Shown here piece after piece: positions 1 through 46,655 of a stretch of 64,000 bases of DNA. Below the pieces are notes generated by a model. The model saw only the letters and a program-made list of their open reading frames with translations. It did not search any database and was not told the DNA's origin. Location: assembly GCA_947259585.1 (NCBI GenBank), contig CAMYMV010000006.1:18025-82024 (forward strand), read 5' to 3'. The position numbers and the translations under genes are program-made. Source of the stretch: an uncultured Gemmatimonadales bacterium. GTDB lineage: Bacteria > Gemmatimonadota > Gemmatimonadetes > Palauibacterales > Palauibacteraceae. The first letter of the stretch is position 1. Every line of letters starts with the position of its first letter.

Positions 1-534
1 TTCGCGGCTACGGGTCAGACCAGCATCATGATCAAGGGCCGGGGAATCGCCGTCGATGCCGTCGTCTCCGACTTCGTCGCCGGAGCGGCCGAGTGCCTGG
101 TCCTCGACGCGGACCCGTCAGCCGACGTGATCGTCGTCGAGGGCCAGGGCTCGCTGGTACACCCCGGGTACTCGGGCGTCACCCTCGGCCTTATGCACGG
201 CGCCCTGCCTCAGGCGCTCGTCCTGTGCACGAAGCCCGAGCGGAAGACCATCTACGGCGGCCATCACGATTGGGTGAAGATCCCGCCGCTGGACGAGGTG
301 GTCCGCCTCCACGAGGACGCGATGGCGTGGGTGTGTCCGGAGGAGCGCGTGCGCGTCGTCGCGGTCGCCTGCAACACGCATGGAATGTCGGAGGCGGAGG
401 CCCGGCGGGAGATTCGAAATGCCGAGGAGCTTACCGGCCTCCCTGCAACCGACCCCATCCGGTTCAGCGCCGCCTTGCTGGCCGATGTGATCCTGCCGCG
501 TGCGCGCGATGCACGGCCCGGGGAATGGCGATAG
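1..534 (+). CDS. DUF1611-like domain protein, C-terminal part (5'-truncated by window edge)
   Basis: The frame is open from nt 1 and the stop is at 532-534. The motif VEGQGSLxHPGYSGVTLGLMHG is reminiscent of the DUF1611 C-terminal domain. Codon usage is GC3-rich. Confidence 0.45.
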   Translation, partial: FAATGQTSIMIKGRGIAVDAVVSDFVAGAAECLVLDADPSADVIVVEGQGSLVHPGYSGVTLGLMHGALPQALVLCTKPERKTIYGGHHDWVKIPPLDEVVRLHEDAMAWVCPEERVRVVAVACNTHGMSEAEARREIRNAEELTGLPATDPIRFSAALLADVILPRARDARPGEWR

Positions 535-595: not shown

Positions 596-2545
596 ATGAC
601 GAGATCCCGTTCGGCGCTTCCGGTACTATCCTTCCTCACGCTTCTCGTTCTCTACGGCCTGTCCGGCTGCAGCTCCGAGCCGACCGCCCCGGAGCGCGAC
701 GAAGCCGACCTCTCCATCACCAAGTCCGACGCCGCCGACCCCGTGACGATCGGAGACGAGATCGTCTACACGATCACCGTCTTCAACGGCGGGCCGGATG
801 GCGCGACGCAGGTTGAGCTGACGGATGGCGTGCCCTCGGGCACCAGCTTCGTGTCGGCCAATCCGTCGCAGGGAACATGCGCGAACGCGAACGGGACGGT
901 GACCTGTACCCTCGGGAGCCTGGCCAGCGGCAGCAGCGTGACGATCACGCTCAGGGTCACCGCGACGCTGGGCGGAGAGGTGAGCAACACCGCTTCGGTG
1001 AGCGGCGACGAGGACGATCCCAACAGCGGCAACAACAGCGCGACGGAAACCACGACCGTAGAGCTCGACCCGGCCGACCTCTCGCTGACCAAGGAAGATG
1101 AGGGTGCGGTACTGCCGGGTGCCGACATCGTCTACACGATCACGGTCCGGAACGACGGACCGGGCGACGCAACGAACGTCCAGGTCACCGACGACGTTCC
1201 CGAGGGGACGACCTTCGTCTCGGCAGTCGCCTCGCAGGGTTCCTGCGCCGAGGCGGGCGGCACCGTGACCTGCGATCTCGGAAGCCTGGCGGACGTTGCC
1301 ACCGCGACCGTCACGCTCACGGTCGGGACGGAGGCGGCGGGCCTGGTGGAGAACACGGCCACCGTCTCGGCCATCGAGCCGGATCCGAACGAGGTCGACA
1401 ACTCGGATACCGAGATCACCAATGTGGTGAGCGTGACCACGGACCTGGCTATCACGAAGGTCGCGGAACAGGATCCGGTGGCTCCCGGCGAAGAGATCGT
1501 CTACGTGATCGGCGTGAGGAACCGGGGACCCAGCGATGCGGGCGCCGTCCGGGTCACGGACGACTTGCCCGAGGGCACCACGTTCGTCTCGGCCGAGGCG
1601 TCGCAGGGCGCCTGCTCCGAAGAGGGCGGCACGGTTACCTGTAACCTCGGGGGGCTCGATTTCCTTTTTGACGCGACCGTGACCCTCACCGTGGAGGCCG
1701 GCGACGCTGGCGCAGTCATCAACACGGCCATCGTGTCCGGCGCTGTCCAGGACACGGTCGAGAGCAACAACACGGCCTCCGATACCACCACCGTCACGCC
1801 GCTGGCCGACCTGTCGGTCGACAAGGACGATGAAGCGGATCCTGTCGAAGTGAGCAACAACATCGTCTACACGCTCGTGGTGACGAACCTCGGACCGAGC
1901 ACCGCCACCGACGTCGTGGTCACCGACTCGTTGCCTGACACCACGGACTTCGACGAGTTCACCACCACGGATGGCGTCTGTGACGACCGGCAAAACGTCG
2001 TCACGTGCGAGGTCGCGCAGCTGGCTCCGGGCGACACTGTGCGGATTACCATCGAGACGACGACCGAACAGACCGGGTTCGTGAACAACCTGGCTCTCGT
2101 GACGAGCTCCGTCGCCGATCCGGACCTCGAGAACAACACGGACAGAGCGGGCACGAATGTCACGGGCCTGCAGGCCGACTTGTCGATCACCAAGACAGCT
2201 CAGGCGAACCCGGTCACCGTCGGCAACAACATCGTCTACGCGATCGACGTCCTCAACAACGGACCCGACGACGTCACCGATGTCACCGTCACGGACGTGG
2301 TGCCGGCGGGAACGACCTTCGTGAGCGCCACCGTGAGTCCGGGCTCATGCGGCCTGGGCGGCGGGGTCGTCACCTGTGACATCCCCACATTGCCCAGCGG
2401 CGTGGGCACAACGATCACGCTAACGCTGCAGGCCGATCAGGTAGGGGACGTGACGAATACGGCGACGGTGAGCCCGCCGCCGGATGCGGAGGATCCGGTC
2501 TCGGGCAACGACTCTGACTCGGAGACCGTCACCGTCGACCCGTAG
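596..2545 (+). CDS. DUF11 (conserved repeat domain) surface lipoprotein with six ~100-aa repeats
   Basis: A signal peptide with lipobox (LSGCSS) follows the ATG at 596. About six tandem repeats of the pattern DLS(I/L)TK..P...G..I.YTI.V.N.GP..AT.V.VTD.(L/V)P.GT.FVSA..SQG.C......V.C.LG.L match the DUF11 repeat. The track start at 500 would add a non-signal extension. Confidence 0.7.
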   Translation: MTRSRSALPVLSFLTLLVLYGLSGCSSEPTAPERDEADLSITKSDAADPVTIGDEIVYTITVFNGGPDGATQVELTDGVPSGTSFVSANPSQGTCANANGTVTCTLGSLASGSSVTITLRVTATLGGEVSNTASVSGDEDDPNSGNNSATETTTVELDPADLSLTKEDEGAVLPGADIVYTITVRNDGPGDATNVQVTDDVPEGTTFVSAVASQGSCAEAGGTVTCDLGSLADVATATVTLTVGTEAAGLVENTATVSAIEPDPNEVDNSDTEITNVVSVTTDLAITKVAEQDPVAPGEEIVYVIGVRNRGPSDAGAVRVTDDLPEGTTFVSAEASQGACSEEGGTVTCNLGGLDFLFDATVTLTVEAGDAGAVINTAIVSGAVQDTVESNNTASDTTTVTPLADLSVDKDDEADPVEVSNNIVYTLVVTNLGPSTATDVVVTDSLPDTTDFDEFTTTDGVCDDRQNVVTCEVAQLAPGDTVRITIETTTEQTGFVNNLALVTSSVADPDLENNTDRAGTNVTGLQADLSITKTAQANPVTVGNNIVYAIDVLNNGPDDVTDVTVTDVVPAGTTFVSATVSPGSCGLGGGVVTCDIPTLPSGVGTTITLTLQADQVGDVTNTATVSPPPDAEDPVSGNDSDSETVTVDP

Positions 2546-2761
2546 AGGAGACCATCAAGTCCAACCAACGACCACCGCGCGTGAAGAACGCCGAATCGTC
2601 GGACGCCGGGCGCGGCTGAGGTCCGCTGCGAGGGGCCGGAGGGATTCCGCGACAAGCGATTCAGGGCGACGGCGGCGAGACCCCGCAGCAAAGCGAGGAG
2701 GCTCGCCGCCCAAAGCCCGTAAAGCGAGCGTGGGACCCTTCGGCCCCACCCAAGGAGAACC

Positions 2762-3535
2762 CTAGCCGCGCTCCTCTTCCACGATCTCGGCGTCCTGAAC
2801 CTCTTCGCCCCCCTCCAGCACCTTGAGCTCCGCCTCCTCCACGTCATCAGGGGCCGGAGGCAGCAAGCCCATGTCCCGCTTCAGCTCCAGAAGCCGATCC
2901 TCCACGTCCGGTGTGGCCGCGGCCAGCAGGTCGAGCTCGCGCGCCAGATCGTCGCCTTCTAGCTCCTCGGTGACCTCGGCGGCCGCGATGGCCCGGCGCT
3001 CCTCGGTCTCGATCTTGTCGGCCATCTGATCGAAGGCCCGGAAGGCGCTGCGGTCCTGAAGGCCGGTGATCGTCTCGTGAATGCGCCGCTGTGCCTGCGC
3101 ACGCTTCTGCTTCGCGATCAGGAGGTTCTTCTTCCGCTTCGCCTCCTCGATCTTCGCGTTCAGCTGGCGCAGCGAGTCCTTGAGGCGCTCCGTGTCCTCC
3201 CGGTGCCTTTCCCACTGCGTCTGGAGCTCCTGGGCGTGGTTGGCGTGCTCCTGAGCCCGCAGAAGCGCCTGCTTGGCCAGGTCGTCCCGGTCCTCGCGCA
3301 CGGCCAGGCGGGCTCTCTTCTCCCAGTCCACGGCCTGACGCCGCTCTTCCTCGACCTGAGCCCTCAGCTTGCGCTCGTCCGCGATCGCGACGGCCACTTC
3401 CTGCTTCGCCTGTGCGAGCTGCCGCCGCATGTCCTCGATGATCTGCGTCAGCATCTTCTCGGGGTTCTCGGCCCGAGCGATCAGATCGTTGAGGTTGGAG
3501 CGGATCAGCCGCGAGAGTCTATCGAACAATCCCAT
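2762..3535 (-). CDS. pspA: Phage shock protein A / IM30 / Vipp1 family (PspA)
   Basis: The N-terminus MGLFDRLSRLIRSNLNDLIARAENPEKMLTQIIEDMRRQLAQAKQEV is the canonical PspA start. The rest is a long coiled-coil. ATG at 3535 (cat at 3533-3535 on the plus strand). The track ORF start at 3598 adds 21 aa. Confidence 0.85.
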   Translation of the reverse strand: MGLFDRLSRLIRSNLNDLIARAENPEKMLTQIIEDMRRQLAQAKQEVAVAIADERKLRAQVEEERRQAVDWEKRARLAVREDRDDLAKQALLRAQEHANHAQELQTQWERHREDTERLKDSLRQLNAKIEEAKRKKNLLIAKQKRAQAQRRIHETITGLQDRSAFRAFDQMADKIETEERRAIAAAEVTEELEGDDLARELDLLAAATPDVEDRLLELKRDMGLLPPAPDDVEEAELKVLEGGEEVQDAEIVEEERG

Positions 3536-3542
3536 CGGAAGG

Positions 3543-4112
3543 TCAGTCCGTTTCGAGGTTCTGTTTGTAGGACGAAAGCGCGAGGGCGATGCTCTCAACC
3601 GAGGCCTGAAACTCGGAGAAGTCCAGGTCCGCCAACTCCAGCGTGTCGCTGAGCAGGATCTGCCCGTTCTCCAGGCCGTAGGCGCCGTGGACCACCTCGG
3701 TCGCGTTCAACTCGAGGAGCCGGCCGTAGAGCTTACGCTGCTCCTCCTCGTCCTCGGGCGCTCGCTGCACGTCGGAACGGAGGACGATAACTGGCGGCGC
3801 GTGATTCACCAAGATCGCCGGCAGCTGCTCCTCCTCGCCCGCGCTCGGATGGACCGCCCAGATGCCCTCCCCGATCTCCTCGTAGTCCAGCTCGGTTCGG
3901 ATCAGGTAGCTCTCCAGGTCTTCAAGGCCGATCATGTGCTTGTATCCTCTCCAGCGCTCGGCGCCGTCGCTCAGCGCCACCAGCTGCTCGGAAGTCCCCG
4001 TCGGGGCCTCCAGCGCCCGCTTCTCCCCGGATTTCTCGATCGACGCCGCGATGGCGCGGGCAATCGGTCCGAGAACGAACATGATGAACAGAATGGCGAG
4101 GATGAACGTCAT
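3543..4112 (-). CDS. Membrane-anchored YbjN-like (T3SS-chaperone-like fold, tentative) protein, co-operonic with pspA
   Basis: ATG at 4112 is preceded by CAGGAGCGGGGA, with AGGAG 7 nt upstream. The N-terminal TM helix is MTFILAILFIMFVLGPIARAIAA. The cytoplasmic acidic domain carries ...LLELNATEVVHGAYGLENGQILLSDTLELADLDFSEFQASVESIALALSSYKQ, resembling the YbjN/DUF family. Its stop at 3543-3545 lies 8 nt from the pspA ATG. Confidence 0.5.
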   Translation of the reverse strand: MTFILAILFIMFVLGPIARAIAASIEKSGEKRALEAPTGTSEQLVALSDGAERWRGYKHMIGLEDLESYLIRTELDYEEIGEGIWAVHPSAGEEEQLPAILVNHAPPVIVLRSDVQRAPEDEEEQRKLYGRLLELNATEVVHGAYGLENGQILLSDTLELADLDFSEFQASVESIALALSSYKQNLETD

Positions 4113-4183
4113 TCCCCGCTCCTGGTTTCCGTACGAGCCGCCCGCCATCGGGGTTTCGCGGGCGATGATCTTCGCAAGCGGAA

Positions 4184-4212
4184 ACGTTAACGCACAATCA
4201 GGCGGCGATCAA
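4184..4212 (-). promoter_or_regulatory. Candidate sigma70-type promoter for the ybjN-like/pspA operon
   Basis: On the minus strand the sequence reads TTGATC-N17-TAACGT. The -35 maps to plus 4207-4212 and the -10 to plus 4184-4189, about 65 nt upstream of ATG 4112. This is a weak consensus match only. No sigma54 motif was found here. Confidence 0.25.
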
Positions 4213-4308
4213 CGCGTTCCCGATCCCACGGCGGAGTTCTCCAGGCTTCAGGTGCAGCTTCCGGAGGCTCGGCTGGCGCCGGAAGGAATGTAGCGCGGCC
4301 TATGAGAA

Positions 4309-4347
4309 CTGAGTAAAGAAAAGCCCCATCCTGGTTGGATGGGGCTT
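4309..4347 (-). terminator. Rho-independent terminator downstream of the acidic lipoprotein gene
   Basis: The plus strand reads AAGCCCCATCC-tggtt-GGATGGGGCTT, a perfect 11-bp stem with 5-nt loop at 4321-4347. It is preceded on the plus strand by AAAGAAAA, which is a U-tract after the hairpin on the minus strand. It lies 86 nt beyond the stop of gene 4433..6919. Confidence 0.6.
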
Positions 4348-4395
4348 CCCTTAGGAGGTGTGCCTCTCCCTCAACGCGCGAGGAAGGGTTGGGCG

Positions 4396-4419
4396 AGGAG
4401 GCCGAAGCAGGCCTCCTCG
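4396..4419 (-). other. GC-rich stem-loop without U-tract, 14 nt after the lipoprotein stop
   Basis: GAGGAGGCC-gaagca-GGCCTCCTC, a 9-11 bp stem. No T-run follows on either strand. It may be an RNA-stability hairpin upstream of the true terminator. Confidence 0.4.
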
Positions 4420-4432
4420 CGCTGTTATCCGA

Positions 4433-6919
4433 CTACTGCCACTGGAAGGTTTTACCAGCTACCGCGCCGATCTCCAGTCCGTCGTCCGTGCCGTCCTTCC
4501 GCTCCGCACCGTCGTCTGCCGTGATCGTGAAGCAGTACAGAACATCAGTGAACGGGGTGAGGTTCGCCGCCGTGAACAGGACGTCGAAGTCGCCGCCGCC
4601 GGCGTTGACCTCGGTCGTGACATCCACGATCACCGTAGCGCCAGTCGCGTCGTCGTTGCCGCCTTCCGGCGTCACCAGCACGTCGTCTTCGTCGACGAGA
4701 TCCTCACCGCCAGCATCGCAAGTATTTAGTCCTGCGACGCTGAATGCCGTCACCTGGACGACCGCACTCGTGACGGCCGTGCCGTCGCCGTTGCGGTCCA
4801 CCACGCTCGCGTCGAGAACGAACTCGACCGTCGCGGCGTTCGAGCTGTTCAGGCCGGTGATCCCACCGAAGCCGATGATCGGCTGGTTCGTGTCGATAAT
4901 GACCGAGTACGAGGCCGTTGACACGTTGTTCTCGACCTGAGCCTTGTCGGGCACGCTATGCGTGAGCGCGTAAGTGCCGTCATTGTTGCCGTCGCAGGCG
5001 TAGGTCAACCCGGCGTCGGCGGTCTCGTTGCAGATATAGCCCGAGAACATCCCGTCAGCGGCTAGCGTGCCGAAAGCCTGGGCTGTCTGCACCACGAAGT
5101 CGTTGAAATCGTCGCCCGGCGAGTCGTCGATCTCGACAAAGACCAGCTCGCCGTCGCCATTGCCATCGGCACACGTGGTCGTGGCTGGATTGGTAGCGGG
5201 ACCACAGCCGGTGTCCTCCACGCCGGCCCCTGGATCGCCGCTGGCCAGATCCGGGTCGAGCGCCTCGAACATGACGTTCTCGCACAGCGTCTCGTCGAGC
5301 GGATCGCCCGGCAACGCGTTGTTCGGATCGCAGCCGCGCAAGTCCGGATCCACGCCGTCGAAGGTCAGATCCGGGTTCCAGACGAACACCGGTGTAGTTG
5401 CATCCGGCATGAGCTCGTCGATAACCGGACCGGTGAAGTCCGCTCCCAGCTGGCCGCTGATCACGACCCCGCTCGGCGCGTCGAGCTCGGTGATGAACTC
5501 GTCCTCGATCTGGAGGTCCATCGTGCCGTCGCTCAGCTTGTTGCCCAGCAGGTCGCCCACCTCGGCGATCTGGATCGTGTAGGCGTCGACCGGCGCGCCT
5601 GCCTCGCCCGTAGCGGCGCACTGGCCGTACGCGGTCGCGAAGGTGTTGAGGCCAAGCGCCTGATCCGTCGTCCCGTCGTCGCCGCACGCGTCATCCTCGG
5701 TCAGGTCGGCGACGCCGAAGACGGGCGTGAGGAAGAGCACGAGGTTGCCGACGTCGCCATCCGCGTAGTCCCACGCGGCCAGCACGGTCGTGGTGCCCAG
5801 AACCAGGCCCACCCCGTCGTCGTCGACGATGGTATTGCTGTCGTCGCGAAGGTCGAAGTCGCCGTCCGAGAACAGGTTGTTCGTGAAGCCGGCGGCGTTG
5901 CCGTCGTTGATCGGGTATTCGTCGTCGATCCATACCTCGCACGGATCGTCGTCGCAGAGCGGAGCGCTGAGGTCGATGTTCCGCTCGTCCCCGCTGTCAA
6001 AGAGATCGGAGAAGTCCGAGGTGATGTTCGTGCCGTCGCAGGCCAGCACCTTGTTCGCCCAGACGTTGATGTCAGTGTCCTCCACCGAGTCCTCGTTCCG
6101 GGACTCTTCATCGACCCAGGTCGGATCCGACGTCGGAACGTCCCGATAGAGGGCCATCGCCTCGTAAGGCGCCGCGTCGTCCGTAACGGAGCTTGAGGTG
6201 GACGTAAAGAGCATGCCCCCGTTGTTGGTAATCGTCACCTCGCAGACGCCACCGAAGTCGTCAAGCGAGGAGTCGAAGAGGATCGGGCACGCATACCAGC
6301 TCAGGTCGATGGGTCCACCCCACCAGCCCTGCTCATCCAAGCCGACGACCCGCGGCCCGATGTCGTTGGAGACGACGGCCACTGTGTTTTCGTTTTGGAA
6401 GTTGAGGGGGGCAACCCTGGTCGCACTGACCGTGCTGCCGTCCTGCAAGGTCAGTCGGGCCGCGATCGTGTGGTCCCCGTTCTCGAAGCGCCCCATCAGC
6501 GTCTGGCCCACGCATTCGCCGATACCTTCGGCGGTGTCGAGCGTGCAGGAGACCTCCTGCACGTCGGCGCTAAAGCCGACAGCTGCCTGACCCGAGAAGG
6601 TCTGGCAGGGCACGACGTCGGAATCGACGAGGATGTCCAAGGCAGCGGCCTCGAAGCCACCCGTGTCGTAGCTGATGTTGACGCTGATGAACCGGCGATC
6701 GAACGCACTGCCGACCGGGCCCTCGTCGAGCTCGCCGAGCTCGGCGCCATCATCGAACTCGGCGATAGAGATGATGCTAATTTCTGCGGCTTCTGGCGGG
6801 GGCGGCGGTGGAGGCGGCGGCGGCTCCGTGATAATCACGTCGTCCGCGCAGCCCGCCAGGCCGATTGCCAGCGCCCCGACAAACAACACCAGGGGGTTGG
6901 TAGCTTTCAGCTTCATCAT
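4433..6919 (-). CDS. Large acidic secreted lipoprotein (828 aa) with poly-Pro linker; function unknown
   Basis: Start MMKLK with AGGAGG 6 nt upstream. The signal peptide carries lipobox LAGC. A P10 run follows, then a Asp/Thr/Gly/Asn-rich, Cys-containing body (many DxDxDG-like stretches, possibly Ca-binding). TAG stop at 4433-4435. Confidence 0.7.
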   Translation of the reverse strand: MMKLKATNPLVLFVGALAIGLAGCADDVIITEPPPPPPPPPPEAAEISIISIAEFDDGAELGELDEGPVGSAFDRRFISVNISYDTGGFEAAALDILVDSDVVPCQTFSGQAAVGFSADVQEVSCTLDTAEGIGECVGQTLMGRFENGDHTIAARLTLQDGSTVSATRVAPLNFQNENTVAVVSNDIGPRVVGLDEQGWWGGPIDLSWYACPILFDSSLDDFGGVCEVTITNNGGMLFTSTSSSVTDDAAPYEAMALYRDVPTSDPTWVDEESRNEDSVEDTDINVWANKVLACDGTNITSDFSDLFDSGDERNIDLSAPLCDDDPCEVWIDDEYPINDGNAAGFTNNLFSDGDFDLRDDSNTIVDDDGVGLVLGTTTVLAAWDYADGDVGNLVLFLTPVFGVADLTEDDACGDDGTTDQALGLNTFATAYGQCAATGEAGAPVDAYTIQIAEVGDLLGNKLSDGTMDLQIEDEFITELDAPSGVVISGQLGADFTGPVIDELMPDATTPVFVWNPDLTFDGVDPDLRGCDPNNALPGDPLDETLCENVMFEALDPDLASGDPGAGVEDTGCGPATNPATTTCADGNGDGELVFVEIDDSPGDDFNDFVVQTAQAFGTLAADGMFSGYICNETADAGLTYACDGNNDGTYALTHSVPDKAQVENNVSTASYSVIIDTNQPIIGFGGITGLNSSNAATVEFVLDASVVDRNGDGTAVTSAVVQVTAFSVAGLNTCDAGGEDLVDEDDVLVTPEGGNDDATGATVIVDVTTEVNAGGGDFDVLFTAANLTPFTDVLYCFTITADDGAERKDGTDDGLEIGAVAGKTFQWQ

Positions 6920-7479: not shown

Positions 7480-10476
7480 TCACAGAATCCGCCGCAAGGA
7501 CGTTCCAGTGTGGCTGTCATCGGCCGCAGCCACAACCTCCGGCGGTCCCGCCGCCACGATCCGCCCACCGGCCCCTCCTCCCTCGGGCCCCAGATCGATC
7601 ACCCAGTCGGCCGTCTTGACGACGTCGAGCTGGTGCTCGATGACCAGCACGGTGTTGCCTTTCTCCACGAGCTTGTGCAGGACGCGGAGCAGCAGGCGTA
7701 TGTCCTCGAAGTGAAGACCGGTGGTGGGCTCATCCAGAATGTAGAGAGTCCGGCCGGTGCTCCGCTTGGAGAGCTCCGTGGCCAGCTTGACCCTCTGGGC
7801 CTCACCGCCCGAAAGGGTCGTGGCCGGCTGGCCGAGGTGGATGTAGCCGAGCCCCACATCATGGAGGTAGGCGAGCTTGCGGCGGATCGTCGGCACCGGG
7901 TCGAAGAAGGAGAGCGCATCCTCCACGGTCATGTCGAGAACGTCGGCGATGCTCTTCCCCTTATATAGAACCTCCAGCGTCTCCCGGTTGTAGCGCTTCG
8001 CGCGACAGACATCGCACGGCACGTACACGTCCGGCAGGAAGTGCATCTCGATCTTGACGAGGCCGTCGCCCCTGCAGGCCTCACAGCGCCCGCCCTTCAC
8101 GTTGAAGCTGAACCTCCCCGGCGCGTAGCCGCGGATCCGAGACTCGGGTAGCCGGGCGAACATCTCCCGGATCGGTGTGAAAAGGCCCGTGTACGTGGCC
8201 GGGTTGGAGCGCGGGGTGCGGCCGATCGGGCTCTGATCCACGTCGATCACCTTGTCGATCTCCTCCATCCCTTCGATCGCCTCGTGATCGCCCGGTACGG
8301 CGCGGGCCCGGTAGAGCTCGCGCGCCAGCCTGCGGTAGAGGATCTCCTCGACCAGGGTGGATTTCCCCGACCCCGAGACGCCGGTCACGCATATGAAGAG
8401 CCCGAGCGGGAACTCGACGTCGATGTCCTGAAGGTTGTGCTCGCGCGCGCCCCGCACGACCAGCTTCTGATGCCCGTCCGGCGAGCGCCGTCGCTTCGGC
8501 ACCGGGATGCTCCGATCGCCCCTGAGGTAGGCGCCCGTCAGCGACGCCTCGTGGCCCAGCAGATCCTCCACCGTCCCCGACACGATGACCTCGCCGCCGT
8601 GCCGGCCGGCGCCGGGCCCCATGTCCACGACGTAGTCGGCGGAGCGGATCGTCTCCTCGTCGTGCTCCACGACCAGGAGCGTGTTGCCCAGATCGCGAAG
8701 CGTTTCGAGCGTGTCCAGCAGACGCCGGTTGTCGCGCGCGTGGAGGCCGATGCTCGGCTCGTCCAGGACGTAGAGCACGCCGACCAGCCGGCTCCCGATC
8801 TGGGTGGCCAGCCGGATCCGCTGGCTCTCCCCCCCGGAGAGCGTCTCGGCCGCCCTCGAGAGCGTGAGGTAGCCGAGCCCGACATGCACCATGAAGCGGA
8901 GGCGGGAGCAAACCTCCTTGAGGATGGGAGCGACGACTTCCGCCGTCCGGCTGGTGGCTCGAGCGAGCATCTCCTCGAAGAGCTCCAGCGCCTCGTCGAT
9001 CGGAAGCTCCAGCACGTCGGAGATCCGCCGCCCCCCCACCGTCACGGCCAGGCTCTCGGGCCGCAGGCGGGCACCGCCGCACGCCTCACAGGACGAAGCG
9101 ACCATGAAGGCTTCGAGCGCCAGGCGCACCCGGTCCGCCTGCGCTTCCCGGTAGCGGCGCGCCGTGTCGGCGACCGCGCCCTCCCAATCCAGCTCCGGGT
9201 CGCCCTCCAGAACGGCCTCCCGCTGGGCGTCCTCCAGCTCGCCCCACGGAGTGCCGAGCGAAAACCCGTGCTTTTCGGCCAGGGCCGGCAGGATCCGCCG
9301 CCTCAGCCGTCCGGTCGGCCCTCCCCACGGAAGGATGACGCCTTCCATGATGGAGATCGGATCACCCCCCACGATCAGGGAGGGATCGGGCCGCTTCTGA
9401 AGGCCGAGGCCGTCGCACTCCGGACAGGCCCCGTACGGCGAGTTGAAGCTGAACTGACGGGGCTCGAGCTCGGGTATGCTCAGCTCGCACGCCGGGCAGG
9501 CGTACTGCTCGCTGAACAGGTGCCGCCCATCCTGCGGCGAATCCATCTGCAGCACCTCGACGGTGCCGGCCGCCATCCGGAGCGCCGTGCCCACGGAGTC
9601 GGCCAGCCTCTCCCGATCCCGCCCCCGAACGGCCAGTCGGTCGACGACCACCGAGATGTCGTGGCTCGCGCGGCGGTTCAGTCGAGGCGGATCGCTCAGC
9701 TCCACCAGCTCGCCGTCCACCCGCGCCCGCACGAACCCCTCCTTGACCGCCTCCTCGAACAGATCGCGGAACTCGCCTTTGCGGCCCCTGACGAGGGGGG
9801 CGAGGACCTCGATCTTCGTTCTCTCGGGCCAGGTAAGGACCTGCTCGGCGATCTCGGTGGCCGACTGCGGGCGAACGGGCCGGCCGCAGTTGGGGCAGTG
9901 AGGAGTCCCGGCGCGTGCCCAGAGGAGGCGGAGGTAGTCGTGGACCTCCGTGACCGTTCCGACCGTGGAGCGCGGGTTCCGGCTCGCGCTCCGCTGCTCG
10001 ATCGCGATCGCCGGGGAGAGCCCCTCGATCTGATCGACGTCGGGCTTCTCGAGGACGCCGAGGAACTGCCGGGCGTATGCGGAGAGCGACTCCACGTATC
10101 GGCGCTGGCCCTCGGCGTAGATCGTATCGAAGACCAGGGAGGATTTGCCGGAGCCCGAGAGACCCGTCACGACCACCAGGCGATCGCGGGGAATCTCCAC
10201 GTCGATGTTCCGGAGGTTGTGCTCGCGGGCGCCGCGCACGACGAGCGTATCGGACTCGGCCCGGCCCTCCGTGTCGCCAGAGCCCGCCGCTTCGCCGGAG
10301 CCCGCCACTTCGCCAGAGCCCTCCGCTTCGCCGGACCTCGCCTGCACCCCCGAGCCCATTTCTTCGTCGGGGGCGATCAGAACGTCACCCGGGCCGGTCT
10401 GTGCGTCACCCGGCTCCGTCATCCGCGCCTCCGGGCCGGCTACCGCCGAGCCCGCACCGTTCTTCCGCCGCGCCAT
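7480..10476 (-). CDS. uvrA: Excinuclease ABC subunit A (UvrA)
   Basis: Two ABC ATPase modules ([10 protein letters not shown], twice), zinc-finger Cys clusters, and [20 protein letters not shown]. An N-terminal extension of about 75 aa of low-complexity SGEA repeats leaves the true start uncertain. Candidate starts are 10476, 10422 and 10359. Confidence 0.9.
10273..10344 (-). repeat. 18-bp tandem repeat x4 (TTCGCCRGAGCCCGCCRC) inside uvrA 5' region
   Basis: Direct tandem copies were seen on the plus strand at 10273-10344. They encode [21 protein letters not shown] in the uvrA frame. The unit is a multiple of 3, so copy-number change would preserve the frame. Confidence 0.5.
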
Positions 10477-10477
10477 C

Positions 10478-11398
10478 CTATCGCGGCACCAGGATACGCC
10501 CGGCGCCGGGCATCACCTTGGCCTCGAGCGGCGTTTCGCCCGCCGCCTCACCGTCGATCTGCACTGCAACCGGCGGATCCGCCTCGACCTTCACGCGCTT
10601 CGCCTGGATGAAGAGCATGCGGTCGTCGCCCGCATACCTCTCGCGCGCGACTCGCCAGAGCATCGCCGCCCAGTCCGGAAGCTTCCGAGCCGCGAAGATG
10701 CAGACATCCAGCAGTCCGTCCTGAAAGCAGGCGCGGGGCGCGAGCTTGATGTCCATCGGCAGGGGCGAGACGGCCAACTGCCCGACGTTCGCCACCAGGA
10801 TCATCGACGCCTGAACCTCGAGCTCACGGTCGTCCACGACGAGACGGAACTTGGACGAGCGCGGCGCCAACGCGCTCTTCAGGCCTCCTAGGACGTAGGC
10901 GGCCGGTCCCAGCAGCTTCTTCATCTCCGGCGTCGCCGCGGCGATCAGCTCGGCATCCAGCCCTGCGCCGGCCATGAGCGCGAACACGTCGTCGCCGGCT
11001 CGCCCCAGGTCGATCTGCTCGACCTGTCCCTCGACCGCCACGCGCACAGCGCCTTCGACGGAGGCGGGGATGTCGAAGTTGTTCGCCAGCTGGTTCCCGG
11101 TGCCGAGGGGAAGGATCGCGACCGGGACCTCCGTTCCGGCCGTCCCCCGCAGCGCCTGAGCGACGGTGCCGTCCCCCCCGGCCGCCACGACTGCGCGGAC
11201 CCCTTCGCGGGCAGCGGACCTCGAGATCTCGAGCGCCTCGGCCGGGCTCGCCGACGTTACCAGATCGAACGGGACGTCGTGCTCGGCGAAGGCCGAGGCG
11301 ATCCGGCGGCGCATGACGACCGGCGATTGGCCGCCGCTCGCGGACGGGTTGATGAGGACGAGGAAGCGCTCGGCGCTCGGGTAGGGGACCTCAGGCAC
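10478..11398 (-). CDS. Diacylglycerol kinase catalytic-domain family lipid kinase (YegS/DagK-like)
   Basis: [13 protein letters not shown] ... [10 protein letters not shown] ... PLGTGNQLA ... MAGAGLDAE are the DAGK_cat signature motifs. Confidence 0.8.
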
Positions 11399-12278
11399 TT
11401 CGGCCGGCCTGCTCCTCCAGGCGCCGCACCCGCTCTTCCGTCGGCGGGTGGGTGCGGAAGAGAGAGGCGAACGCCCCGCCGGTCCCTCCGCGCAGCGGGT
11501 TCACGATCGCCAGGTGGGCCGCCGCCGGGTTCACCTGCATCGGGATTCGGCGGGCGCCGTTCTCGAGCTGGCGAAGCGCACTGGCGAGATCGAGCGGCCG
11601 ACCCGAGATGTCGGCGCCCACCCGGTCGGCCCGGTACTCCCCCGTGCGGCTGATCGCCATCTGGACGAGCATCGCCGCCAGCGGAGCGAGTATGAGCATG
11701 AGGATCCCGGCGATCGCGCCTACGGCACCCCTGTCGCGCCCGCCGCCGAACCAGAAGCCGACGCGGGCCAGCGTGACGATTGCCGCCGACATCGTCGCCG
11801 CGACCGTGCCGACGAGCATGTCGCGGTTCTTGATGTGGGCCAGCTCGTGGGCCAGCACGCCGCCCAGCTCGTCACGGCTTAGGCCCTCGAGGATCCCTTG
11901 CGTGACGCACACGACGGCGCGCTCCGGGCTCCGGCCGGTCGCGAAGGCGTTGGGCTGCGAGCTCGGCGCGATCGCCACCGTCGGCATCGGCAGGTCCGCC
12001 CGCCGCCTCAGCACGTCCACCATCGCGTACAGCTCCGGCGCCTCCTCGGGCCCCACCACCTGGGCCCTATACATGCGGAGGACGATCCGGTCGCTGAACC
12101 AGTAGCTGCCGAAGTTGAAGACGGCCGCGAACAGGAGGGCTCCCACCATCCAGTTCGAGCCGCCGAAGAAGCCCGCGATCCCGACGAACAACATCGTCAG
12201 CACCGCCATCAACCCAAATGTCTTCACGTAACTCATGAGGTCACTGTCATCTTCCGTGTCATCCTGCCGTCCTATCAT
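11391..12278 (-). CDS. htpX: M48 zinc metalloprotease HtpX
   Basis: HELAHIKNRDM supplies the HExxH motif. Four TM segments are present. The C-terminus matches HtpX. The start is either the track start at 12278 or the ATG at 12236 (MSYVKTF...). Confidence 0.8.
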   Translation of the reverse strand: MIGRQDDTEDDSDLMSYVKTFGLMAVLTMLFVGIAGFFGGSNWMVGALLFAAVFNFGSYWFSDRIVLRMYRAQVVGPEEAPELYAMVDVLRRRADLPMPTVAIAPSSQPNAFATGRSPERAVVCVTQGILEGLSRDELGGVLAHELAHIKNRDMLVGTVAATMSAAIVTLARVGFWFGGGRDRGAVGAIAGILMLILAPLAAMLVQMAISRTGEYRADRVGADISGRPLDLASALRQLENGARRIPMQVNPAAAHLAIVNPLRGGTGGAFASLFRTHPPTEERVRRLEEQAGRSA

Positions 12279-45267: not shown

Positions 45268-45822
45268 TTAGCGCGACGGATCGCTCTCCAGCGCAGACGA
45301 CCCAGTCTGCACGAGGGGCACGAAGAGTTCTTCGGATCCCGATCGGCGTTCCCAGATCGTGGGAACGGCTCCCCCGACCCATACCCGCTCGTAGATCACC
45401 GGAGTGACGAACGGCCCGGGGCTGAACAGCGACGGCACCTCTGCGCTCGGCGCCGGGACGGTCACGGCCACCGGTGCGAGCTCGACCTCGACCGGAATCC
45501 TGCTCGCGAACGGGAGCCACACGACAGCAAGGAGCCCCACCGCTGCCATCGCGACCAGCGCGGCGCCGCCGCCGAGTCGTGAGCCCAAAACCGTGTGGTC
45601 GTCGATGTGGTAGAGGCGGTGCCGCAGGCGAGGAAGGAAATCGGGCGAGGCATCGGGTCGCGGAAGCTGTCGGAACAGGTCGATCCCCTGCCTGACCACG
45701 CGATGGTATCGCGCGCAGTCCGGACATTCTCGGAGATGGGAGTCGAAATCCCGAAGTTGTTCGGGCGTCCGAAGACCATCCGAGTAGTCGGAGTAACCTT
45801 TGAGAAACTCCCCACAATCCAT
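45268..45822 (-). CDS. Zinc-binding anti-sigma factor (ZAS, HxxxCxxC) with one TM helix
   Basis: MDCGEFLKGYSDYSDGLRTPEQLRDFDSHLRECPDCARYH contains the ZAS motif. A TM helix (AALVAMAAVGLLAVVWL) follows. The gene sits downstream of an ECF sigma gene. ATG at 45822 has GGGAGAGGG upstream. Confidence 0.6.
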   Translation of the reverse strand: MDCGEFLKGYSDYSDGLRTPEQLRDFDSHLRECPDCARYHRVVRQGIDLFRQLPRPDASPDFLPRLRHRLYHIDDHTVLGSRLGGGAALVAMAAVGLLAVVWLPFASRIPVEVELAPVAVTVPAPSAEVPSLFSPGPFVTPVIYERVWVGGAVPTIWERRSGSEELFVPLVQTGSSALESDPSR

Positions 45823-46019
45823 CACGGGCAACCCTCTCCCGGGCATCGGCACACTCCGGACAACCGTTCGCGCTTCCGACGCGAACCCGAAGGCCCGTCT
45901 ACGCTTTGGGAACCGGCGATTTCTACTCGTTTGGGCAGGGGGGGTTCCCGACAAAAAAGGGCGGCCTCGAGGGCCGCCCTTAAATGCGTGTCGCGATGTC
46001 GTCGGCCGCCGCTCGCCTG

Positions 46020-46655
46020 CTACTCGAGCATGGGCGCGATGATCTGGGCGAACTTGTTCCTTGCCCGGTTGAGGCGGGATTTCACGGTCCCGAGCGTCAC
46101 GCCGGTGATCTCCGAGATCTCCTCGTACGTCTTGCCCTCCATCTCACGCAGGACGAAGACGACGCGGTGATGCTCAGGCAGCTCCTCGACGGCCTTCTCG
46201 ACCTGCGCCCGCAGATGCCGCTTCCGGAAGAGGTCGTCCGGCGCGTACGACCGGTCCTCCCACTGCAGCGGACGGTGGTCGGCATCCCAGTTCTTCTTGA
46301 TCGCCTGGAAGAGCACCATGGGATTGCGCGACCGGTTCCTGAGCTCGTTCTTCGCCAGGTTGCTCGCGATCGTGTAGATCCACGTCGAGAACTTCTTGGT
46401 CGGATCGAAGCGATGCAGATGCCGGTATACCCGCACGAAAGTCTCTTGAACGAGATCCTCCGAGCGGTCCCGATCTCCGATCGTCCGGTAGATGAAGTTC
46501 AGAAGGCGGTCGTGATAGCGCCCGACCAACTCCTGGAACGCGAACCGCCCTCCATCGAGGTACTCGGCCACAAGCTCGGCGTCATTGAGCTCCTTGAGCT
46601 CGAGCCGGGACCGCGGCTCTCCCTTTGCATGCTGTACAGCCAGCGACTTCGGCAT
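46020..46655 (-). CDS. ECF-subfamily RNA polymerase sigma-70 factor
   Basis: Region 2 reads FQELVGRYHDRLLNFIYRTIGDRDRSEDLVQETFVRVYRHLHRFD. Region 4 is at the C-terminus. ATG at 46655 has GGGGAGGG upstream. The track start at 46811 adds 52 aa. Confidence 0.8.
   Translation of the reverse strand: MPKSLAVQHAKGEPRSRLELKELNDAELVAEYLDGGRFAFQELVGRYHDRLLNFIYRTIGDRDRSEDLVQETFVRVYRHLHRFDPTKKFSTWIYTIASNLAKNELRNRSRNPMVLFQAIKKNWDADHRPLQWEDRSYAPDDLFRKRHLRAQVEKAVEELPEHHRVVFVLREMEGKTYEEISEITGVTLGTVKSRLNRARNKFAQIIAPMLE

Follow-up and report, generated by a model that had tools for sequence, protein, structure and literature searches.

Membrane repair in bacteria, archaea and plastids is a task of the PspA/IM30/ESCRT-III proteins. 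To our knowledge, the delivery of PspA to a damaged membrane is largely unknown outside the models of E. coli (PspBC) and Bacillus (LiaI, YdjGHI). The question is raised anew by a psp locus in a stretch of 64,000 nucleotides (64 kb) of contig CAMYMV010000006.1 from an uncultured Gemmatimonadales bacterium; this whole stretch is called the window here. On its minus strand, pspA stands directly downstream of an open reading frame (ORF) of 189 aa. A preliminary description of the locus, made from the letters alone, had taken the product of this ORF for a membrane-anchored YbjN-like protein and had suggested that it could be an alternative membrane partner of PspA. Is such an anchored protein the partner design of this lineage?

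Our comparison with related loci points to another answer. The 189-aa ORF is very probably a chimera that arose from a deletion of 107 nt, by which the transmembrane (TM) helix of one gene was joined to a CesT-like gene, and the fusion was seen in this genome only. With moderate confidence, the locus can be read as the Gemmatimonadota version of a known envelope-stress dyad of a CesT/Tir-like protein and PspA, which in this lineage is normally extended to a triad and has been fused here by the deletion.

Origin of the 189-aa open reading frame

We searched 5.8 billion proteins with the 189-aa product and obtained about 620 homologues. Those listed are 117-141 aa long (typically about 130 aa), apart from P0001 and two chimeric contigs, and they cover the C-terminal 69% or so of the query, from the internal Met of ATG 3935 onwards. 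The only full-length match among the homologues listed was P0001, the window's own record, which is annotated by NCBI as one 189-aa protein. A profile search over 1.84 billion cluster representatives found 610 family members, and there was no fusion of a TM helix to the CesT-like domain elsewhere in the best 150 of these 610 representatives. N-terminally extended family members were considered as natural fusions, and the extensions could be explained by over-called starts or by chimeric contigs. Records P0120 and P0027 contain half a CesT-like domain and unrelated sequence (in one of them a receiver-domain fragment), and are more likely to be chimeras of short contigs than real architectures.

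Where the window has one 189-aa gene, its relatives at 88-98% identity carry two (95 aa and 129/130 aa). The product of their 95-aa gene reads MTFILAILFIMFVLGPIARAIAVSIEKSGEKRAL...LAERVDRLSEEQSFLLRVMEKE..., and its stop codon overlaps the start of the CesT-like gene as ATGA. The contigs of these relatives keep the order of the neighbourhood, that is, uvrA, a lipoprotein gene of about 811-815 aa and the psp genes. Intact 95-aa orthologues were found in related loci L001-L006 and L009-L012. In the relatives that were checked gene by gene, the small gene is a separate ORF, which overlaps the CesT-like start (as ATGA, or by 1 nt) or stops a few nucleotides before it.

At the DNA level, the missing 107 nt correspond to positions 2780-2886 of L004, and the blastn alignment breaks exactly at window position 3967|3966. 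The flanks of this junction are collinear with L004, with 91-94% nucleotide identity on both sides. A hidden Markov model (HMM) of the small protein matched the window over positions 1-48 of 89 only, in the same frame as the CesT-like gene. Because 107 is 2 modulo 3, the deletion shifts the frame, and because no stop codon intervenes, the TM helix reads into the CesT-like gene. The segment that was lost is the cytoplasmic helix, the most conserved part of the small protein. Most of the divergence of the 48-codon remnant from L004 probably predates the deletion.

The ORF itself is real and lies ahead of pspA as described, with a gap of 7 nt, not 8 nt, from its stop codon to the pspA ATG. An AGGAG stands 6 nt ahead of ATG 4112, the start that gives the 189-aa product. 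The longest form of the ORF that ends at 3543 would start at ATG 4148 and have 201 aa; this start was rejected, as the relatives do not have that ATG, the AGGAG precedes 4112, and 4148 lies inside a conserved promoter-like motif of the extracytoplasmic function (ECF) type. The two features that had been reported for the 189-aa protein, one N-terminal TM helix and an acidic domain, are both there; what does not hold is their unity, as the ORF appears to be a chimera of two genes that are separate in relatives. The N-terminal MTFILAILFIMFVLGPIARAIA is strongly hydrophobic and is modelled by AlphaFold as a helix at residues 2-27 of the 189-aa protein, and the corresponding TM helix in relatives has a mean Kyte-Doolittle value of 2.49 over 19 residues. 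The last 130 aa are strongly acidic (28 D+E versus 7 K+R).

What the window's genes now produce may be asked in several ways. The deletion could be a loss-of-function lesion, after which the products are a free CesT-like protein of 130 aa from ATG 3935 and PspA, equivalent to the lineages that have only the dyad. The ancestral Shine-Dalgarno-like GGAGAGGA and ATG 3935 are fully retained, so that production of a free CesT-like protein may continue; the window no longer encodes the conserved EEQxFLxRLLE helix; and dyad-only loci are common and evidently viable (15/64; L089, L091, L092). However, translation from ATG 4112 would still give the fusion, with no stop codon intervening, and ribosomes from 4112 may occlude internal initiation. 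We regard a pure lesion as possible, if rather unlikely.

It could also be supposed that the deletion is an assembly or sequencing artefact of a metagenome-assembled genome (MAG), and that the organism carries the usual triad. In favour of this are the MAG origin of the contig (P0001 is known from a single NCBI record, on a contig of 197 kb), the single sighting of the variant, and the chimeric contigs P0120 and P0027 in the same protein family. Yet the loss is a clean 107 nt, and no long direct repeat or low-complexity sequence, at which an assembly graph could collapse, was found flanking the deleted segment in relatives. Deletions of this kind are ordinary strain-level events. Because the flanks are collinear and there is no long repeat, a real deletion at the strain or species level is favoured over an assembly error, and we consider the artefact improbable. 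A slipped-strand or repeat-mediated origin, like assembly collapse, was rejected for want of a repeat of suitable spacing.

The original proposal makes the 189-aa protein a selected membrane anchor, with which the lineage would replace PspB/C or LiaI/F. It accords with the intact ORF, which follows a good Shine-Dalgarno sequence and shares an operon with pspA, with the annotation of P0001 as one protein, and with a predicted topology in which the CesT domain is cytoplasmic, on the same side of the membrane as PspA. However, the architecture is unique to P0001 among the homologues listed and the best 150 of the 610 cluster representatives, all relatives examined (up to 98% identity) have two genes, and the 107-nt deletion strips the membrane protein of its conserved motif. 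Since an in-frame outcome has a prior of about 1/3, the open frame is weak evidence of selection. A selected anchor is thus highly improbable, and an anchored 189-aa protein cannot stand for the partner design of a lineage in which the relatives have two separate proteins and one genome has the fusion.

The small membrane protein and the CesT-like neighbour of PspA

As judged from the genes of relatives, the normal design of the lineage is a small membrane protein and a separate, soluble CesT-like protein of 130 aa. In alignments, the small protein has about 95 aa, with a single TM helix at about residues 3-22, basic residues after it, and then a heptad helix that ends in EEQxFLxRLLE; the full C-terminal motif is L(S/T)EEQxF(L/M)xRLLE. 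The N-terminus is acidic or neutral and K/R residues follow the helix, and by the positive-inside rule the protein would be N-out/C-in with a cytoplasmic helix. The family comprises 368 clusters of about 82-132 aa, all of them named "hypothetical" or mislabelled, and no Pfam or NCBIfam family was found for it. JGI labels the 95-aa protein (P0121, P0123, P0133) as "nucleoside permease NupC", which is a mis-annotation and probably comes from a weak match to the TM segment (TIGR00804, E 0.056).

Among the 64 Gemmatimonadota loci that have at least 300 nt of upstream sequence, the small gene was found upstream in 47. It was present in 36/40 loci with a CesT-like identity of at least 53% and in 11/24 loci below 53%. 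A more distant subgroup has uvrA directly upstream of the dyad and no small gene.

Two groups of loci show other states of the small gene. In L008, a Gemmatimonadales contig, four tandem paralogues of 115-128 aa, mostly with two TM helices, occupy positions 1149-2615; all four end in LEERVDFAERLL and sit directly before the CesT-like gene and pspA. In L057-L062 and L071 (JABAO* contigs), the small gene is apparently degraded or frameshifted, with HMM matches that are partial or in different frames. Independent decay of the small gene may be recurrent.

The second component was assigned by family and by fold. Pfam CesT_Tir_1 (PF22550) matched residues 76-198 of the 201-aa form of the ORF on profile positions 6-125 of 131 (E 9.5e-21, 74.5 bits against a cut-off of 27), and Pfam CesT (E 7e-4) and YbjN (PF10722; E 0.033, 14.9 bits versus 22) both stayed below their own cut-offs on the window domain. 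The AlphaFold model, built as a single chain with 34 homologues, has a predicted local distance difference test (pLDDT) above 90 over most of residues 60-189, and its order of elements, H-E-E-E-E-H-E-E-H, is the topology of secretion chaperones. Foldseek against the PDB gave 26 matches with E <=1e-3, all of them YbjN-like proteins or chaperones of type III secretion systems (T3SS), including YbjN-like 2plg, AmyR, YbjN, ExsC, SycN/YscB, SicP, SpcU, CesT and SycE. It also returned the PspA-linked BacA, 8q8o (ranks 39-40). A sequence profile of the domain found nothing in the PDB, so the relation to the solved structures is at the level of fold. The guess of a YbjN/T3SS-chaperone-like fold in the preliminary description is therefore borne out by the Pfam match, the model and the Foldseek matches, and structure prediction of the 189-aa protein returned this fold rather than a generic coiled coil.

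Our survey covered 88 related loci, of which 8 came from a genome scan and exact look-ups and 80 from a metagenome scan; among them there are 75 distinct CesT-like sequences. PspA is adjacent on the same strand in all 73 of the 73 unique loci with room for it, and starts 0-94 nt downstream, with a median of about 6-7 nt. PspA_IM30 was also found immediately downstream of all three distant PF22550 members from other lineages for which downstream sequence was at hand (L089, L091, L092), and these have unrelated neighbours. PspA is the only constant neighbour of the CesT-like gene across the related loci. The linkage to pspA that had been put forward as a check on the 189-aa protein is thus conserved among its homologues.

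These counts bear on whether the CesT/YbjN-like protein is a YbjN/AmyR-type general stress regulator or a secretion chaperone that merely lies beside pspA. YbjN and AmyR, which are described as regulators, are among the top structural matches, and NCBI names the homologues "CesT family type III secretion system chaperone"; against this stand the invariable and close adjacency of PspA in the 73 loci and in the three distant lineages, a YbjN Pfam score below its cut-off, and the flanking genes scanned and the related loci, in which no secretion-system genes were found, so that such a bystander is hardly probable.

PspA itself was compared with the profiles of its family. Its product scored 157.8 bits with PF04012 (gathering cut-off 33.9), with residues 2-220 on profile positions 1-216 of 220. 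It was below the NCBIfam equivalog cut-offs of TIGR02977 for proteobacterial PspA (126 versus 243) and of NF045984 for LiaH (72.7 versus 380). By these scores, the window PspA is a general member of the PspA/IM30 family and is no equivalog of proteobacterial PspA or LiaH.

The core pairing of a CesT-like protein with PspA is already known. Ravi et al. reported a CesT/Tir-PspA dyad as a stand-alone unit and as part of larger operons (2024, mSystems, PMC11237479), and the CesT-like protein has its own Pfam family, PF22550. What appear to be new are the unannotated family of small membrane proteins and a conserved promoter motif of ECF-sigma type. The suggestion of an alternative partner set for PspA is therefore partly upheld: a set other than PspBC or LiaIF is plausible in the lineage, but the 189-aa anchored protein is not that set, and the pairing had been published.

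Upstream motifs and neighbouring genes

The features of the locus are collected in Table 1. The position of pspA and the sequence of the sigma-70-like site agree with the preliminary description.

Table 1. Features called or predicted at the psp locus of the window.
Feature	Coordinates	Strand	Basis
pspA, PspA/IM30 family, 257 aa	2762-3535	minus	Pfam PF04012, E 4e-46
189-aa ORF, very probably chimeric (TM helix of truncated small membrane-protein gene in frame with CesT_Tir_1 gene)	3543-4112	minus	ORF list, AGGAG, small-protein HMM
CesT/Tir-like domain (PF22550), 130 aa, ancestral ATG 3935, Shine-Dalgarno-like GGAGAGGA at 3952-3945	3543-3935	minus	Pfam, homologue starts, AlphaFold, Foldseek
Probable deletion junction, 107 nt absent versus relatives	3967/3966	minus	DNA alignments and blastn breakpoints
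Remnant of small membrane-protein gene, codons 1-48, TM helix at about residues 3-24, then K/R-rich linker	3967-4112	minus	alignments, HMM
ECF-sigma-type promoter candidate, GAAAC-N17-CGTA (GAAACCCCGATGGCGGGCGGCTCGTA)	4132-4157	minus	motif and conservation
Sigma-70-like promoter candidate, TTGATC (4212-4207)-N17-TAACGT (4189-4184)	4184-4212	minus	sequence and relatives
Intrinsic terminator of the 828-aa lipoprotein gene, separating it from the psp module	4306-4352	minus	folding
G+C-rich hairpin just past the pspA stop, possible terminator, low confidence	2728-2751	minus	folding, region z -3.2, no clean U tract
Asp-rich lipoprotein, 828 aa, P10 linker	4433-6919	minus	ORF, composition
DUF11 surface lipoprotein, five repeats, convergent with pspA	500-2545	plus	PF01345 E 5e-137, 5 stretches; TIGR01451, 5 stretches

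Upstream of the module, the block with TTGATC-N17-TAACGT is invariant among the window and L001-L003, and similar TTGnnn-N17-TAnnnT sites occur in more distant loci. A strict scanner for promoters and terminators over 2400-4500 made no call for this site or for the hairpin at 2728-2751 and gave nothing useful. The statement that no sigma-54 promoter lies upstream is confirmed by a scan of 160 nt of upstream sequence for TGGYA-N6-TGC, which found no site either in the window or in the related loci. No PspF-like gene was found among the flanking genes, to which the search for PspF within the 64-kb window was limited.

A second, nearer candidate was missed in the preliminary description. Promoters of the ECF class, of the B. 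subtilis sigmaW type, have the consensus tGAAAC at -35 and CGTA at -10 (PMC5758882), and we tested for (t)GAAAC with CGTA/CGTC at fixed spacing. GAAAC-N17-CGTA has its sole match in the 64-kb window here, where 0.14 would be expected. It was found at identical spacing, with variable spacer sequence, in 62 of 75 upstream regions (47/49 triads and 15/26 dyads), and the background was 3 matches in 673 kb. The module is probably, as far as motif and conservation can indicate, an ECF-regulated envelope-stress unit.

The window also encodes an ECF sigma factor (about 46020-46650; 34% identity to E. coli RpoE by tblastn), followed by a gene for a zinc-finger protein that resembles an anti-sigma factor with a single TM helix; the pair lies at about 45268-46650 on the minus strand.

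On the far side of these promoter candidates, the terminator that had been noted after the 828-aa gene was recovered as a hairpin at about 4316-4352 with a 16-bp stem (dG -27.3 kcal/mol, z -3.9), followed by UUUUCUUUACU, and it is kept in L001-L003. The gene itself fits its earlier description as an Asp/Thr-rich lipoprotein with a P10 linker: its product has the lipobox LAGC, P10 at residues 33-42, 13.2% Asp and 8.8% Thr. It was matched by no family in Pfam or NCBIfam and occurs only in close relatives, with 811-815 aa in L001 (2965-5412) and L002 (1006-3441). The 811-828-aa lipoprotein diverges fast, with about 76-81% nucleotide identity among close relatives versus 87-94% for the psp genes, and may be a fast-evolving surface protein.

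The convergent neighbour of pspA had been described as a surface lipoprotein with six DUF11 repeats. It is a DUF11 lipoprotein, but the number of repeats is five, as counted by PF01345, TIGR01451 and the five ADLSxTK repeat starts; the repeats are of about 122 aa and start at residues 69, 192, 314, 436 and 559. The likely start is ATG 596 (MTRSRS...LSGC), with the signal peptide ...LLVLYGLSGC. This gene is absent beside pspA in L007 and L008, and uvrA is directly upstream of the module in L007 and L072-L088. The flanking lipoproteins were considered as functional partners and rejected, as neither L007, L008 nor the uvrA-adjacent group has them. By this distribution, the two large lipoproteins are lineage-specific neighbours, namely insertions in the window's sublineage, and lie outside the module.

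The wider conserved frame is uvrA, the psp module and DUF1611 (window 28-534 and 7480-12278; L007, L008). Beyond uvrA there are a lipid kinase of YegS/DAGK type (10478-11398) and an M48 protease of HtpX type (11391-12278), both membrane-related.

A proposed mechanism and its relation to known systems

The normal module would consist of three translationally coupled genes, in the order small membrane protein, CesT-like protein and PspA, transcribed from the sigma-70-like promoter and the nearer ECF-type promoter. The factor that raises its expression would probably be a sigma factor of extracytoplasmic stress, not PspF and sigma-54. The CesT-like protein could act as a class I secretion chaperone or adaptor, which binds PspA and keeps it assembly-competent or hands it to the membrane, and the small membrane protein could be its docking or sensing partner at the inner membrane face. 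In the window, the fusion would either tether the adaptor directly to the membrane or merely have inactivated the membrane partner, in which case the CesT-like protein would still be made in free form from ATG 3935. The roles of the two proteins, as adaptor and as docking partner, are put forward tentatively, by analogy, and with somewhat less than even confidence.

Several points weigh against this reading of the locus. The ECF promoter candidate rests on motif and conservation, and its CGTA (4135-4132) leaves a leader of only about 12 nt before ATG 4112. The window's one pair of ECF sigma and anti-sigma genes is without GAAAC-N17-CGTA upstream; because no matching motif stands before the sigma gene, there is no evidence that this sigma factor controls the psp module. 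In 15/64 loci the dyad occurs without the small gene, and the membrane partner is therefore not obligatory. Gene order, translational coupling and fold are what suggests that the CesT-like protein may bind PspA or the small protein. The deletion was read from the assembled contig only, and since it takes away the best-conserved segment of the small protein, the chimera could be without function.

A bolder form of the triad reading is that in many Gemmatimonadota PspA works with a membrane sensor or anchor of about 95 aa and an adaptor of CesT fold under ECF control, and that the window's fusion is a working, membrane-tethered PspA receptor that records a "Rosetta-stone" contact. We consider this form unlikely. 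If true, the fusion would show that the small membrane protein and the CesT-like adaptor are in physical contact at the membrane, and the small protein would be a functional analogue of PspB/C or YdjG/H. The CesT-like partner was a published prediction without a mechanism; this family of loci adds a hypothesis of three parts (membrane protein, adaptor and PspA) and a likely ECF promoter, and the one fusion that has arisen in nature gives a hint of the two parts that are in contact. For annotation, the lesson is that the "189-aa membrane-anchored chaperone" of the public record is very probably a chimera in a lineage of one and should not be propagated as an architecture.

The CesT-like protein resembles class I T3SS chaperones (CesT, SicP, SycE, ExsC) and YbjN/AmyR in its alpha-beta-beta-beta-alpha-beta-beta-alpha fold, small size and strong acidity. 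It differs from the chaperones in that no secretion system is nearby, the sequence identity is 10-18%, and the presumed client is PspA and not a secreted effector. Closer in arrangement are YjfI(DUF2170)-YjfJ of E. coli and BacA-BacB (PA3732-PA3731) of P. aeruginosa, where a CesT-fold gene also lies directly before a PspA homologue. BacA (DUF2170) has a solved CesT-like crystal structure, 8q8o, and is encoded beside a PspA homologue in Pseudomonas (PMC10948618). Unlike the window protein, YjfI and BacA belong to DUF2170/PF09938 and not to PF22550, are proteobacterial and are found in larger operons. A sigma-54 site has been proposed for bac, whereas the conserved upstream motifs here are ECF-type and sigma-70-like.

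The small membrane protein invites comparison with PspB of E. coli and Yersinia (TIGR02976, PF06667), which is likewise a small, N-out/C-in, single-pass protein with a cytoplasmic heptad helix in a pspA operon. No demonstrable homology to PspB emerged: there was no Pfam match, and hhalign against E. coli PspB gave a probability of 4.6-13%. TIGR02976 matched 9/93 members of the small-protein family (best E 5e-4, about 17 bits at most versus 51.7), and unrelated coiled-coil families matched more members. The likeness is kept as an analogy of architecture. In contrast to the PspB systems, the window module has no PspC, no PspF (among the flanking genes scanned) and no sigma-54 site. The remark that a PspB-type partner is lacking is only half true, as the TM helix in the window appears to be the remnant of a small membrane partner that is PspB-like in architecture.

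In B. subtilis, pspA-ydjGHI is controlled by sigmaW, and membrane proteins with an adaptor recruit PspA (PMC8581546). This operon shares with the present one a promoter of ECF-sigma type and, as a functional analogy, recruitment of PspA by a soluble adaptor whose action requires small membrane proteins. However, its partners share neither sequence nor fold with those here (YdjI is an SPFH/band-7 protein, and YdjG and YdjH are other membrane proteins), and the order is reversed, with pspA as the first gene.

The nearest relative is the published CesT/Tir-PspA dyad (PMC11237479), in which, as here, a small gene of the CesT superfamily lies immediately upstream of a PspA/IM30 gene on the same strand; the pair can stand alone as a unit. 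That paper makes no mention of Gemmatimonadota, of ECF control or of a third component in the form of a small single-pass membrane protein, and the band-7/flotillin, AAA+, YqiJ or polyamine genes that its larger operons carry are missing from the present locus. The window copy differs from the published dyad in one further respect, in that its CesT-like gene has additionally been fused, very probably by the 107-nt deletion, to a TM helix.

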